A stretch of 64,000 bases of DNA from an uncultured Rickettsiales bacterium (GTDB taxonomy: Bacteria > Pseudomonadota > Alphaproteobacteria > Rickettsiales > SXRF01), in NCBI GenBank assembly GCA_964645205.1, contig CAZYBO010000003.1:634-64633 (forward strand), given 5' to 3'. The notes under the pieces were generated by a model. The model was given only the letters and a program-made list of their open reading frames with translations, was not told the origin of the DNA and made no database searches. Shown here piece by piece: positions 4,775 through 62,860 of the stretch (position 1 is its first letter; every line of letters begins with the position of its first letter). Position numbers and translations under genes: made by a program.

Positions 4775-5065
4775 ATGCACGATGAAGTACGCTTAAAGCG
4801 CCTCAAATACCGCAGCGGCCATCGCGGTTGCAAGGAAACCGACCTCGTGCTCGGCCAGTTCGCCAATGAGCGCATGGCGGCGCTGGATGCGGATGCGCTC
4901 GACCTTTACGAAGCGCTGCTCGACGAAAACGACGTGGATATATGGAACTGGCTGACCGGCGCGGATACGCCGCCGGATAGCCGTTATGACGCGCTGCTTG
5001 AGATATTGTTATCTTGTCATTCCTGCGAAAGCAGGAATCTTATAGTTGCGACAAAGGAAAGTTAA
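4775..5065 (+). CDS. sdhE: FAD assembly factor SdhE (SDHAF2/DUF339 family); C-terminal tail encoded by a repeat element
   Basis: RLKYRSGHRGCKETDLVLGQF and DVDIWNWLTG motifs. The last ~17 codons and the stop lie in palindromic element A1. Confidence 0.75.
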   Translation: MHDEVRLKRLKYRSGHRGCKETDLVLGQFANERMAALDADALDLYEALLDENDVDIWNWLTGADTPPDSRYDALLEILLSCHSCESRNLIVATKES

Positions 5066-5090
5066 GATTCCTGCTTTCGCAGGAATGACA
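5015..5090. repeat. palindromic repeat family A, copy A1 (TGTCATTCCTGCGAAAGCAGGAATC ... GATTCCTGCTTTCGCAGGAATGACA)
   Basis: Two inverted copies of a ~25-nt unit that is itself a hairpin, 76 bp in total. Nearly identical to the copy at 60646-60717. Confidence 0.9.
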
Positions 5091-5099
5091 AGCAATAAT

Positions 5100-8000
5100 A
5101 TGAACGAACCCTCCCCCCTTGCCCCCGATTTACCGCCGCGCGTGTTAGGCGGCGTGCCGCGCAATGCCGAGGCGTATGCGCTGAGCGAATTGCTCAAGTG
5201 CGATCACGACATGATCCTGCATATCGCGGTGAATGACCGCGAGCTGGATACGCTGCGCCAGTCGCTGGCGTTTTTCGCGCCCGATGCGGAGATACTCTGT
5301 TTCCCGGCATGGGATTGCATGCCCTATGACCGCGCCTCGCCGATACCTGCGCTTATGGCCGAACGCATGCGCACGATGGCGGCGCTGGTGAACGGCCGGC
5401 CGCGCGGGAAGCAGCGCGTGGTGCTGACTACCGCCAACGCGGTTATCCAGCGCCTGCCACCGAAGGAATTGCTGCGGCGCGTGACGCTCTCGCTGCGCAA
5501 AGGAGATGAGTTTAAACAGGACGATCTGGTGAAAGCGCTGATCCAGCAGGGCTACCGGCGTGCGGGCAAAGCGATGGAGCCGGGTGAATTCGCGCTGCGC
5601 GGCGGGATCATCGACATCGTGCCGCCGACGCAGGAGCGGCAGGGCGGCAACGGGGTGCGCATCGATTTCTTTGGTAATGACATCGAAACCATCAAACCCT
5701 ATGACCCGCTAACACAAATTACCAGCGGCAGCCTCGATTCCATCGAGTTGTTCCCGGTGAGCGAAGCTATCGTCAACGACGAATCGCGCGAGCGGTTCCG
5801 CAGCCGCTACCGCGAAACGTTCGGCGCGGTGACGAAGGACGACCCGCTCTATGAAGCGATTTCGCAAGGGCAGTCTTACCCCGGCATGGAACATTGGCTG
5901 CCGCTGTTTTACGAACATATGGACACGCTGGCGGAGTATTGCGGTACGCCGCTGATTACGATGGACAATGAAGTGCAAGCAGCGATGGCGGAACGCTGGG
6001 AAAGCATCCTCGATTATTACCGCGCACGCACGGAGGCGCTCGGCGTCGCGTCCAAGAAGAATAGTTTTGCTGCGGGTGCGATTTACCATCCGCTACCGCC
6101 GGAAGATTGCTTTTTGATGGAAGCGAACTGGGAAGTGGTAGCTGCGCGTTACCCGCGCGTGATGTTCGCGACGTTTGCGGAAGCTGCGCCTGCGGAAGCG
6201 GGAATGAACCTGCGCCCGACCATGCCGTTTTCCCAGGGCGGCGACGTCACGCCGTTCGACCAGTTGAAGGAACGCGTGAAGATCGCGGCCACGCAGGGAA
6301 AAAACACCCTCCTCGCCTGCTTCACCAACGGCTCGTGCGAACGGCTCTCCGCGCTGCTTTCCGAACGCGGGTTTCATTGCGTGCGCGTGGAACGCTGGCA
6401 GGATGCGCGCGGGGTCAAGGGCAGCAGCATCGGGCTTATCGTGCTGCCGCTGGAAAACGGATTTGAAACGGAACGCACGCTGATCTTAAGCGAGCAGGAC
6501 GTGCTCGGCGAGCGCATCGCACGCACCACGCGCAAAAAGAAAAAAACCGAAATGTTCATGGAAGAAGCCGCCAACTTCGCCGAGGGCGAGCTGGTGGTGC
6601 ATCGCGAGCATGGCATCGGGAGGTTCGAGGGGCTGGTGACGCTGACCGTGTCGGGCGCGTCGCACGATTGCCTGAAGTTGATTTATGCCGACGACGACAA
6701 GCTGTTCCTGCCGGTGGAAAATATCGAAATGGTCACGCGTTTCGGGCTGGAAGAGGAAAATGTAAAACTCGACAAGCTCGGCGGCGCGTCGTGGCAGGCG
6801 CGCAAGGCACGGCTGAAAGAACGCATCACGCTGGCCGCGGAAGCGCTGCTGAAAACCGCCGCGCTGCGCCAGATCCAGACCGGCACCGTCATCGACACGC
6901 CGACGGGGACGTATGACGATTTCTGCGCACGCTTTCCCTACGCCGAAACTGAGGACCAGCAACGCGCGATCGACGAGGTACTGGAAGATTTACATTCCGG
7001 CAGGCCGATGGATCGGCTTATCTGCGGCGACGTGGGTTTCGGGAAAACGGAGGTGGCGCTGCGGGCGGCGTTCGTTGTTGCGTGCAATGAAGACTCCCTC
7101 CCCCCTTGTGGGGGAGGGTTGGGGAGGGGGGAAACTCTCAACGATTCGGATTGTGGAAGCAGCCCCCCCTCCCTGCCCTCCCCCACAAGGGGGGAGGGAA
7201 AGTTGCAAGTGGCGTTGATCGTGCCCACCACCCTGCTCGCCCGCCAGCATTACCGCAATTTCAGCAAGCGCTTCGAGGGATTCCCCGTCACCGTGCGCCA
7301 GCTTTCGCGCATGGTGAACGCGAAGGAGCAGAAGGAAACGCAAGCGATGCTCGCAAGCGGCGACGTGGATATCGTCATCGGCACGCATGCGTTGCTGGCC
7401 AAGGGGGTGGAGTTTAAAAATCTCGGCTTGCTGATCGTGGATGAAGAGCAGCATTTCGGTGTGGCGCAGAAGGAAAAACTGAAATCACTGAAATCGAATA
7501 TCCATGTGCTGACGCTCTCGGCCACGCCCATCCCGCGCACGCTGCAAATGGCGCTGACCGGAGTGCGCGATTTGAGTTTGATTACGACGCCGCCGGTGGA
7601 TCGCCTCGCCATCCGCAGCTTCGTGATTCCCTTTGATCCGGTTGTGTTGCGCGAGGCGCTGATGCGCGAGAAGCACCGTGGCGGAAAAAGTTTCGTGGTC
7701 ACACCGCGTATTAAAGATATTGCGGATGTGAAGGCGCAGCTCGCCAGCCTCGTGCCGGAACTGCATGTGGGCGTGGCGCACGGACAGATGCCGCCTACAC
7801 AACTCGAAGAAGTGATGAACCATTTCTTCGACGGAAAATTTGATATTCTGCTTTCCACCGCTATCATCGAATCCGGCCTCGACATCGAATCGGCCAACAC
7901 GATGATCATCCACAACGCGCACCTGTTCGGCCTCGGCCAGCTTTACCAGATGCGCGGGCGCGTGGGGCGCGGCAAGGTGCGTGCGTACGCGTATTTCCTG

Positions 8001-8732
8001 CTGCCGCATTACCGCCAGCTCAGCAAGAACGCCACGCGCAGGCTGGAAGTAATGCAGACGCTCGACACGCTGGGCGCAGGCTTCACGCTCGCTTCGCACG
8101 ATATGGATATTCGCGGCTTCGGCAACCTCGTGGGTGAGGAGCAGTCGGGGCATATACGCGAGGTGGGGATCGAACTGTACCAGCAGATGCTGGAGGAAGC
8201 GGTAGCGGCGCTGAAAGCGGCCGGCGACCAGCGGTCAGCGACCAGTGAAGCATCTACTGACCGCCGACCGCTGACCGCTACTGATTTTTCACCTGCGATC
8301 AATCTCGGCCTTTCCGTCCTCATCCCCGAAACCTATGTGGACGATTTACCGCTGCGACTCGGACTATACCGCCGCGTAGCGTCGCTTGCCAGCGAAGCGG
8401 AGATAGACAGTTTCGCCGCCGAACTCACCGATCGTTTCGGCGACATGCCGGAGGAAGTGAAAACGCTGATCGCCGTGCTCGGCATCAAAATCCTGTGCAA
8501 AAAAGCGGAGATCGGCCGCATCGACATAGGGCCGAAGGGCGCGGTGCTCACCTTCCACAACAATCTATTTTCCAACCCCGACGCGCTGTTTGCCCTCGTC
8601 GCCAAACGCCCGCGCAGCCTGAAAATCCGCCCCGACCAGAAATTGCTGTTCACCCACGAATGGAAAGGCGCGGACGATACGATCAGTACGGTGAAAAGGC
8701 TGGTGGGGGAAATTGCGGGGCTGGCGGCGTAG
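5100..8732 (+). CDS. mfd: transcription-repair coupling factor Mfd, carrying an in-frame repeat insertion
   Basis: CarD-like GELVVHREHGIGRFEG, helicase motifs GDVGFGKTE, DEEQHFGV, SATPIPRT, MRGRVGRG, and a C-terminal TRCF domain. Start at ATG 5100 (MNEPSP), outside repeat A1. Confidence 0.95.
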   Translation: MNEPSPLAPDLPPRVLGGVPRNAEAYALSELLKCDHDMILHIAVNDRELDTLRQSLAFFAPDAEILCFPAWDCMPYDRASPIPALMAERMRTMAALVNGRPRGKQRVVLTTANAVIQRLPPKELLRRVTLSLRKGDEFKQDDLVKALIQQGYRRAGKAMEPGEFALRGGIIDIVPPTQERQGGNGVRIDFFGNDIETIKPYDPLTQITSGSLDSIELFPVSEAIVNDESRERFRSRYRETFGAVTKDDPLYEAISQGQSYPGMEHWLPLFYEHMDTLAEYCGTPLITMDNEVQAAMAERWESILDYYRARTEALGVASKKNSFAAGAIYHPLPPEDCFLMEANWEVVAARYPRVMFATFAEAAPAEAGMNLRPTMPFSQGGDVTPFDQLKERVKIAATQGKNTLLACFTNGSCERLSALLSERGFHCVRVERWQDARGVKGSSIGLIVLPLENGFETERTLILSEQDVLGERIARTTRKKKKTEMFMEEAANFAEGELVVHREHGIGRFEGLVTLTVSGASHDCLKLIYADDDKLFLPVENIEMVTRFGLEEENVKLDKLGGASWQARKARLKERITLAAEALLKTAALRQIQTGTVIDTPTGTYDDFCARFPYAETEDQQRAIDEVLEDLHSGRPMDRLICGDVGFGKTEVALRAAFVVACNEDSLPPCGGGLGRGETLNDSDCGSSPPSLPSPTRGEGKLQVALIVPTTLLARQHYRNFSKRFEGFPVTVRQLSRMVNAKEQKETQAMLASGDVDIVIGTHALLAKGVEFKNLGLLIVDEEQHFGVAQKEKLKSLKSNIHVLTLSATPIPRTLQMALTGVRDLSLITTPPVDRLAIRSFVIPFDPVVLREALMREKHRGGKSFVVTPRIKDIADVKAQLASLVPELHVGVAHGQMPPTQLEEVMNHFFDGKFDILLSTAIIESGLDIESANTMIIHNAHLFGLGQLYQMRGRVGRGKVRAYAYFLLPHYRQLSKNATRRLEVMQTLDTLGAGFTLASHDMDIRGFGNLVGEEQSGHIREVGIELYQQMLEEAVAALKAAGDQRSATSEASTDRRPLTATDFSPAINLGLSVLIPETYVDDLPLRLGLYRRVASLASEAEIDSFAAELTDRFGDMPEEVKTLIAVLGIKILCKKAEIGRIDIGPKGAVLTFHNNLFSNPDALFALVAKRPRSLKIRPDQKLLFTHEWKGADDTISTVKRLVGEIAGLAA
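7095..7200. repeat. palindromic repeat family C, copy C1, inside mfd
   Basis: The left end CTCCCTCCCCCCTTGTGGGGGAGGG is the near-perfect reverse complement of the right end CCCTCCCCCACAAGGGGGGAGGGA. Each end is itself a hairpin. Confidence 0.9.
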
Positions 8733-62713: not shown

Positions 62714-62860
62714 TTCCCTCTCCCCTTGTGGGAGAGGGCGATTTTCCTTAGGCTTGGCAACGCCAAGTCTTAGGAAAATCAGGGTGAGGGGTACGCTTGC
62801 TTACTTAGTATGTGGAGCCAGCCCCCTCTCCCCTGCCCTCTCCCACAAGGGGAGAGGGAG
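62714..62860. repeat. palindromic repeat family C, composite copy C2 with a nested second palindrome
   Basis: Ends are CCCTCTCCCCTTGTGGGAGAGGG and CCCTCTCCCACAAGGGGAGAGGG. The right half GTGGAGCCAGCCCCCTCTCCCCTGCCCTC matches C1. An internal imperfect palindrome lies at 62740-62780. Confidence 0.85.

Follow-up and report, generated by a model that had tools for sequence, protein, structure and literature searches.

A BoxC repeat pair in frame within the mfd gene of an uncultured Rickettsiales bacterium and recurrent hairpin insertions at the same Mfd loop

How could a palindromic repeat reside in the core of an essential helicase without breaking it? This question was raised by a stretch of 64,000 nucleotides (nt) from an uncultured Rickettsiales bacterium (positions 634 to 64,633 of contig CAZYBO010000003.1, assembly GCA_964645205.1; hereafter the window, whose numbering is used below). 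In this window, the mfd gene encoding the transcription-repair coupling factor contained extra DNA between the parts specifying helicase motifs I and Ia. According to our preferred interpretation, to which we assigned a probability of about 0.75, a pair of BoxC repeats was inserted into a tolerant loop of Mfd and was translated there, the repeat family was tied to DUF559 genes, and insertions recurred at this loop through a flux of hairpins combined with tolerance of the loop. The recurrence at the Mfd loop was the main new result, and the lone copy in mfd was an ordinary member of a wider phenomenon. Other new observations were the correlation between BoxC and DUF559 across the bacterial family, the compensatory evolution of hairpins, the presence of DUF559 genes inside other genes, and the recurrence of insertions in surE, queA and nadC.

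The extra sequence comprised 35 codons (residues 684-718 when numbered from 5046) lying in frame between the coding sequences of the two motifs (Table 1), and the Mfd product read GDVGFGKTEVALRAAFVVACNED-SLPPCGGGLGRGETLNDSDCGSSPPSLPSPTRGEG-KLQVALIVPTTLLARQH, the layout already written down in the initial annotation. That annotation had correctly placed an in-frame insert of about 37 codons between motifs I and Ia at 7089-7199; its bounds were narrowed here to 7095-7199 and 35 codons. It had also described near-perfect terminal repeats of ~24 nt. The outer 24 nt were in fact perfect, and the inverted arms (7095-7131 and 7163-7199) were longer, extending over 37 nt with 89% complementarity. As a single RNA strand, the element had a predicted folding energy of -90.8 kcal/mol vs -55.5 +/- 4.1 for shuffled sequences (z -8.7; 0/200 shuffles). 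The segment was one copy of a dispersed element resembling a MITE (miniature inverted-repeat transposable element), with two inverted BoxC/PIT/TMECO units around a central spacer.

Table 1. Features of the mfd locus and related copies and cassettes; positions without a prefix are those of the window.
Feature	Position	Strand	Remarks
mfd (transcription-repair coupling factor)	5100..8732	+	open reading frame (ORF) 5046-8732; likely ATG start at 5100
Helicase motif I / Walker A (GDVGFGKTE), coding sequence	7026..7052	+	invariant across the 57-sequence alignment
In-frame element	7095..7199	+	105 nt; inverted pair of BoxC/TMECO units; encodes SLPPCGGGLGRGETLNDSDCGSSPPSLPSPTRGEG
Left BoxC/TMECO unit	7096..7130	+	CCCTCCCCC-CTTGT-GGGGGAGGG-TTG-GGGAGGGGG; <=2 substitutions from the published consensus
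Central spacer	7131..7163	+	33 nt; conserved across copies (11-copy alignment)
Right BoxC/TMECO unit, inverted	7164..7198	-	C3:7797-7831, minus strand
Motif Ia strand and helix (QVALIVPTTLLARQH), coding sequence	7206..7250	+	from alignments including solved Mfd structures
Intergenic full copy	62716..62859	+	between convergent ORFs; nested 41-nt palindrome in the left unit
DUF559 cassette	C8:48897-49293	-	between gatA and gatB; PF04480; ~330 nt between the inverted BoxC units
DUF559 cassette	C2:131947-132363		PF04480; inverted BoxC units about 330 nt apart

The rest of the Mfd protein seemed undisturbed. The start codon was implied by the 1210-residue product of the gene caller, the Pfam domains UvrB_inter, CarD_TRCF_RID, DEAD, Helicase_C and TRCF were all intact, and the DEAD match covered 200 residues over 165 profile positions, i.e., it was 35 residues longer than the profile. 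Mapping onto solved structures, as proposed in the initial annotation, placed the site at a helix-to-strand loop. Namely, the Escherichia coli Mfd structures (6X26 and 2EYQ) aligned on either side of the insert, at residues 575-648 and 650-813, and 38 extra residues stood in place of the single E. coli residue 649. Thus, the insert replaced one residue in the loop leading from the post-Walker A helix to the motif Ia strand, within the first RecA-like domain. An AlphaFold2 run from the single sequence was uninformative (mean pLDDT, the predicted local distance difference test, of 35), and a run with the 57-sequence alignment was used instead. In this model, residues 684-717 formed coil with no secondary structure and a pLDDT of 28-37, and the neighbouring helix and strand reached about 91-92. 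In our interpretation, the insert was most likely a disordered loop of 35 residues rich in Gly, Pro and Ser.

Since the length of the element was a multiple of three and the frame used contained no stop codon, the mfd gene remained open, and on these grounds the element was most likely translated. The element consensus was open in four of the six frames, and in the frame used by mfd its spacer carried a TGA codon. The mfd copy belonged to a subfamily (together with the aat and C5:6332 copies) in which this TGA was missing. Such a loss would be expected under purifying selection that keeps the gene readable, and it provided our main argument for translation rather than skipping. If so, a loop of 35 residues would be tolerated by Mfd.

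The initial annotation had assigned the element to a "family C" of repeats. A dispersed inverted-repeat family was indeed present, and it was not a new one. The published TMECO consensus is CCCTCNCCC N3-6 GGGNGAGGG N3 GGGNGAGGG (Holder et al. 2015, PMC4666352), and a scan of the genome with this pattern returned 18 exact matches and 28 matches at <=2 substitutions, compared with 0 in shuffled sequences; both units of the mfd copy were within the latter limit. By this sequence comparison, the element consists of two units of a known motif, BoxC/PIT/TMECO (PIT, potential intrastrand triplex), in inverted orientation. Rfam contained nothing above threshold for the element and gave only generic microRNA-hairpin matches far below it. 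A BLAST match in E. coli BS-04 was initially considered as a BoxC reference and was dropped as a homopolymer-rich recA-recX spacer; the published table and consensus were used.

Copies were counted with BLAST and with an nhmmer profile built from 11 aligned copies in the genome of this bacterium (G000; 2.17 Mb, 14 contigs, 99.3% complete). The nhmmer search detected about 17 loci of full length and about 15 partial ones, and the element was therefore not unique in its genome. Its core was uniformly 103 nt long (105 nt with the flanking T and A). The intergenic match noted previously at 62821-62860 made up the right half of a full copy (62716-62859). The left unit of this copy carried, inserted between its hairpin and its third block, a perfect-stem palindrome of 41 nt, GATTTTCCTTAGGCTTGGCAACGCCAAGTCTTAGGAAAATC (62738-62778), which was unique in the genome and did not represent a repeat family.

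At least 14 full or partial copies, roughly half of the total, were located in frame within housekeeping genes, which answered the question of how many insertions were coding. The Pfam domain match was split around the element in QueA, TruB, NadC, the CCA-adding enzyme (cca), SurE, RecF, CysS and Aat, and further insertions were read directly from the ORFs of ValRS (valS), SerB, an RlmI-like methyltransferase, an NtrY-like kinase, AmpD and the C-terminus of CcmA. The peptides PSPLVGEG...PLPNPLPQGERE and SLPPCGGG...SPTRGEG were encoded recurrently. Thus, BoxC occupied the helicase core of Mfd and also a dozen other housekeeping genes. The flanks of the copies were AT-rich (0.68 vs 0.435 +/- 0.026; 0/5000 samples).

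Within the BoxC units of this genome, the variable bases of blocks 1 and 2 covaried perfectly (C with G, T with A), and the block-3 variant GGGAGGGGG, a mirror of GGGGGAGGG, was found only together with the C/G hairpin variant. This covariation could fit the needs of an antiparallel purine triplex, and the shared descent of a subfamily could also explain it. There was no signal of homogenization between the arms of the same BoxC copy (0.78 within vs 0.77 between copies). The RAYT transposase (IS200/IS605-type Y1 transposase, PF01797) was absent from the genome in a search whose positive controls fired in 6/14 genomes.

A candidate partner of the family was found among small endonuclease genes. 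The genome had just two DUF559 genes (C8:48937-49251 and C2:131987-132295; PF04480 E values of 7e-44 and 6.5e-43), and both were enclosed by inverted BoxC units. The repeat family thus appeared to be tied to genes for small Vsr-like PD-(D/E)xK endonucleases bracketed by the same inverted units. In the C8 cassette, the DUF559 frame opened at an ATG overlapping the gatA stop codon (ATGA) and ran through both BoxC units, and the gene therefore looked translationally coupled within the gatCAB operon. Across 44 genomes of the family, DUF559 was present in 23 and absent from 3 of the genomes with at least one strict BoxC unit, and it was present in 2 and absent from 16 of those with none (Fisher p 3e-7, Spearman 0.86, tests of a kind that kinship inflates). 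The pattern flipped inside the genera g10, g11, g12 and g6.

Complete DUF559 genes were also found in frame inside other genes: in the IleRS gene of G017 (L144, G017:C72), between two strict BoxC units; at a different position in the IleRS gene of G041 (L146, G041:C13); and in a large oxidoreductase gene of G031 (L145, G031:C95). The latter two had no BoxC unit at <=2 substitutions, and their flanking peptides were BoxC-like. The IleRS gene of G041 additionally carried three hairpin inserts of the VIPSEAEGS type. The cassettes and the 105-nt element shared inverted BoxC ends and two 7-nt inner words, a suggestive hint from sequence comparison that the 105-nt form arose by internal deletion of a cassette; it would then probably be a gene-less derivative of it. 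DUF559 was the best candidate for the protein that recognizes or spreads the element. No paper linking DUF559 to these repeats was found in our literature search.

The question remained why this particular loop was occupied. Measured from motif I to motif Ia, 77/79 other alphaproteobacterial Mfd genes specified exactly 34 residues, compared with 71 here, and for most relatives the Mfd match stopped at about residue 680 and restarted at about residue 717. The ortholog alignment recommended in the initial annotation thus showed that the segment was absent from most Mfd proteins. Within the family, extra sequence was present in the linker of 14/36 genomes examined. This did not represent a conserved segment shared by relatives, since the extra residues of the relatives were encoded by different hairpin repeats, independently inserted. 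BoxC pairs were found in G000, G031 and G042, in three different frames and with different junctions and spacers, and each of these genomes had congeners with an empty site. No junction motif was common to the three BoxC inserts.

The other linkers contained unrelated sequences. In G015, G012, G050 and G051, the insert belonged to an AT-rich family with octamer-repeat arms and dozens of copies per genome, and in G025 to a TCAGGAT-heptamer family, also with dozens of copies. G043 carried a GATGATG-heptamer hairpin (three loci), and G013 had a unique hairpin with no second copy in that genome. In G018 and G037, the insert was a hairpin of the ATTCCCCGC...GCGGGAAT type, which matched neither the NTS nor the SRM pattern; its earlier identification as a decayed BoxC was withdrawn after inspection of the sequence. 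G044 (L023, G044:C23) contained 174 nt of tandem 15-nt repeats (SSEIN x3, NSSAT x3) with no hairpin, and G032 had a shorter insert. One linker of G041 (G041a) was 5 residues longer than usual, which was under the cut-off and outside the 14/36 count. The G041 bin contained two mfd copies on separate contigs (L029 and L030), one of them near-identical in its flanks to that of G042, suggesting that the bin may be mixed.

A maximum-likelihood tree of 226 flanking residues required 13 state changes of the linker, and the well-supported branches alone forced 6. Filled and empty alleles were found as sisters (G050 vs G053, G042 vs G040). In a wider protein search, inserts were present at the same loop in 23/120 best homologues.

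Similar recurrence was observed at other positions. At the surE site that was occupied in G000, G037 had a BoxC pair, and G038 and G042 had other hairpins (that of G042 from a family of about 12 copies); the site was empty in most genomes. At the queA site, G012 and G055 carried BoxC pairs, G049 and G011 carried other hairpins, and G018 had an inverted pair of true NTS-type units with 2-3 mismatches to the published NTS, which also matched the SRM pattern. A further palindrome was nested in the G012 queA copy. The nadC site had inserts in G038 and G043. In total, 4/4 sites tested (mfd, surE, queA and nadC) recurred across genera with different repeat families. We considered the possibility that all the foreign hairpins were Ssn-related motifs, and rejected it, as the queA insert of G018 was the only one that fitted the NTS and SRM patterns. 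Both the mfd and the surE sites were helix-to-strand loops of an alpha/beta fold, and loops of this kind sit away from the active site. The Mfd loop probably belongs to a small group of helix-to-strand loops that were repeatedly colonized in the housekeeping proteins of this family.

We suggest that the BoxC element entered mfd at the short loop equivalent to E. coli residue 649, and that a high flux of hairpin insertions was filtered by selection for in-frame and stop-free insertions in tolerant loops. The lack of an AT island, of a junction motif and of a target duplication favored such a filtered flux. Several observations weighed against our interpretation as a whole. No target-site duplication or direct repeat flanked the 17 full copies, and AT-richness failed to explain the mfd site although the BoxC family preferred AT-rich flanks. 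BoxC was present without DUF559 in three genomes and DUF559 without BoxC in two, and the two 7-nt words were all that the 105-nt spacer and the inner ends of the cassettes shared. The closest relative found in the collections searched had about 69% identity, and scans of metagenomes for empty or filled mfd junctions gave 0 matches; thus, the insertion was undatable and the assembly had no independent confirmation. An exact-protein look-up of Mfd also returned no record. Additionally, an mRNA hairpin of -90 kcal/mol could hinder translation, and the disorder call was weak because a low pLDDT is expected for any segment absent from the alignment.

An alternative, possible but in our opinion doubtful, was that the recurrence had a mechanistic cause: several hairpin families might prefer this DNA site or a pre-existing hairpin, or a nuclease cassette might home to the site and then decay. 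The number of events, at least 6 (13 on the tree) in a linker of ~7 residues among 36 genomes, would be readily understood in this way, as would the inserts in the wider homologues and the recurrence of all four tested sites with different repeats in other genera. Moreover, the foreign palindromes nested in the BoxC unit of the copy at 62716-62859 and in the queA copy of G012 hinted that hairpins attract hairpins, and DUF559 genes in frame inside essential genes resembled homing elements. However, the three BoxC inserts in mfd differed in frame, junction and spacer and had no junction motif in common, and no nuclease gene was present at the mfd site in the 44 genomes or the 120 homologues. An AT-rich island was rejected as the cause of the hotspot, given that the empty linker was no more AT-rich than its flanks. 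Finally, the mfd and surE sites were loops that would be expected to tolerate insertions anyway.

Once inserted, some hairpins were evidently kept. In five orthologous Mfd inserts (from G043 and four metagenome proteins; L022 and L140-L143), each arm comprised about four heptamers in tandem. The variable bases of the heptamers were lineage-specific (GATGAGC, GATGACG, GATGATG), and the complementary change was seen in the opposite arm and in most heptamers, in concert. In the alignment of the five inserts, 86% of the cells paired, compared with <=55% in slid controls, and the covariation score was 0.236 vs 0.073 +/- 0.029 (0/500 shuffles). For these sequences, which were only five and related, the alignment points to persistence of the structure rather than to its cause; selection and templated repair within the hairpin would both yield compensatory changes. 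Arms made of repeat units were also seen in the same Mfd loop of G013 and G025 (heptamers) and of G015/G012 (octamers).

The divergence of these five orthologs with their hairpin retained by concerted compensatory changes was compatible with a single ancient insertion into the Mfd linker of the family ancestor, followed by many losses and by gene conversion from the repeats of each genome. The empty linkers of the family, mostly 36-38 residues long vs 34 elsewhere, could in this case be excision scars, i.e., footprints of an earlier insertion and its imprecise loss. Nevertheless, we regarded this scenario as unlikely. It required many clean losses, even between sister species (G050/G053 and G042/G040), and no process is known that would turn a repeat family into another, unrelated family. 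Moreover, the BoxC inserts differed in their frames and boundaries, and the insert of G013 had no other genomic copy that could serve as a conversion donor.

It was very unlikely that the insert was kept as useful, whether as a protein loop modulating Mfd, as a hairpin or triplex in the mRNA or DNA that tunes mfd expression, or as a target for recombination or a nuclease. The maintenance of hairpins by compensatory change in one clade would suit such a role. In addition, TMECO adopts a triplex structure in vitro and is a marker of variable regions in E. coli (PMC4666352), and the Ssn/NTS system has shown that hairpin repeats can serve as functional targets of a nuclease, with an effect on transformation (PMC11893778). 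However, most members of the family and 77/79 other alphaproteobacteria managed without any insert, the inserted sequences were unrelated between lineages, and the same element was found in a dozen unrelated genes. Neither a promoter nor a convincing terminator was seen in the mfd insert, and its peptide was of low complexity and predicted to be disordered. An artefact (a repeat misassembled into mfd) or bypass by the ribosome was highly improbable: repeats in metagenome bins are easily misassembled and our searches recovered the junction from no second assembly, but the contig was 394 kb long, both junctions were in frame with an otherwise intact Mfd of 1210 residues, independent genomes showed the same phenomenon in the same loop, and the kept frame and the missing consensus stop argued for ordinary translation.

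The element could be compared with several known systems. For E. coli K-12, 23 BoxC copies have been reported, all of them intergenic; they include five inverted pairs and were not linked to mobile elements (PMC4666352). The repeats described here shared the three-block motif, occurred in tens of copies per genome without strand bias, often formed head-to-head inverted pairs and, likewise, had no known transposase. In contrast to E. coli K-12 MG1655, where the copies are reported to be intergenic and to have no associated gene, roughly half of the copies here resided in frame within housekeeping genes, the usual unit was an inverted pair with a fixed length of 105 nt and a conserved spacer, and the motif bracketed DUF559 genes. 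The strictly intergenic location, which is a reported property of E. coli K-12 MG1655 and not part of the definition of BoxC, was thus not observed in this genome.

The likeness to Rickettsia palindromic elements (RPEs), suggested in the initial annotation, held with respect to the way of life, namely in-frame residence in many unrelated genes. RPEs (Ogata et al. 2000, 2002, via PMC10969869) are also alphaproteobacterial palindromic repeats of 100-150 nt that lie in frame in many unrelated housekeeping genes and encode a conserved peptide compatible with protein fold and function. Unlike RPEs, the element was fully accounted for by BoxC units, a family spread across many bacteria, and had a candidate partner in DUF559. 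In the review (PMC10969869), we did not find a report of repeated independent insertions of unrelated families into the same loops. The same review describes MITEs that fuse in frame (intragenic ERIC, Coxiella QMITE1 and Anabaena MITEs), which are similarly small, multi-copy, bounded by terminal inverted repeats, targeted to AT-rich DNA and occasionally involved in translational fusions. The BoxC element differed from them in lacking both a target-site duplication and a related gene for a transposase, and in its ends, which were self-folding triplex-type motifs. The DUF559 cassettes with their shared ends could be regarded as a parent element, but DUF559 is not a known transposase.

The Ssn (GIY-YIG) nucleases and their NTS/SRM repeats (PMC11893778) provided a parallel to the cassettes in two respects: a small single-domain nuclease gene was flanked on both sides by a dispersed hairpin repeat, and repeat and nuclease co-occurred across genomes. 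The two systems also met at the queA site, where G018 carried an NTS-type pair and the present genome BoxC. They differed in the nuclease fold (PD-(D/E)xK DUF559 vs GIY-YIG) and in the repeat, and DUF559 was a candidate partner of BoxC from genome comparisons. The mfd element itself matched neither the NTS nor the SRM pattern.

A wider reading of these results was tentative and rather doubtful. It would make the loop at Mfd residue 649 and the equivalent loops of SurE, QueA and NadC true integration hotspots for unrelated hairpins, some of them associated with nucleases (BoxC with DUF559, NTS/SRM with Ssn, and hairpins of heptamer repeats). These would use a common single-stranded hairpin route that keeps genes readable, and compensatory changes, either templated or selected, would actively preserve them. 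The DUF559 cassettes in frame inside essential genes would then be a splicing-free counterpart of homing elements.

To our knowledge, BoxC/PIT/TMECO repeats have had no known function, mobilizer or origin since the 1990s and were described as intergenic. With DUF559 as a candidate partner, this old question becomes testable, i.e., it can be asked whether DUF559 recognizes BoxC. The Mfd linker, invariant in length in most Alphaproteobacteria and repeatedly filled in one family, is a natural experiment that could help to separate the targeting of insertions from structural tolerance. Furthermore, the Mfd loop accommodates 20-60 additional residues and may be useful for tagging or engineering.

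A second hairpin family was found next to the same gene. Just upstream of the mfd start codon, positions 5013-5091 contained an inverted pair of TTGTCATTCCTGCGAAAGCAGGAATC ... GATTCCTGCTTTCGCAGGAATGACAA hairpins, which had at least 9 copies in the genome. These hairpins resembled the Neisseria NTS, with 5 mismatches to the 28-nt consensus by hand count, two of which formed a compensatory stem pair; tested against the published NTS and SRM patterns, the family failed both. The longer TTG-started ORF from 5046 ran through this hairpin pair, reading ...KIPAFAGMT...

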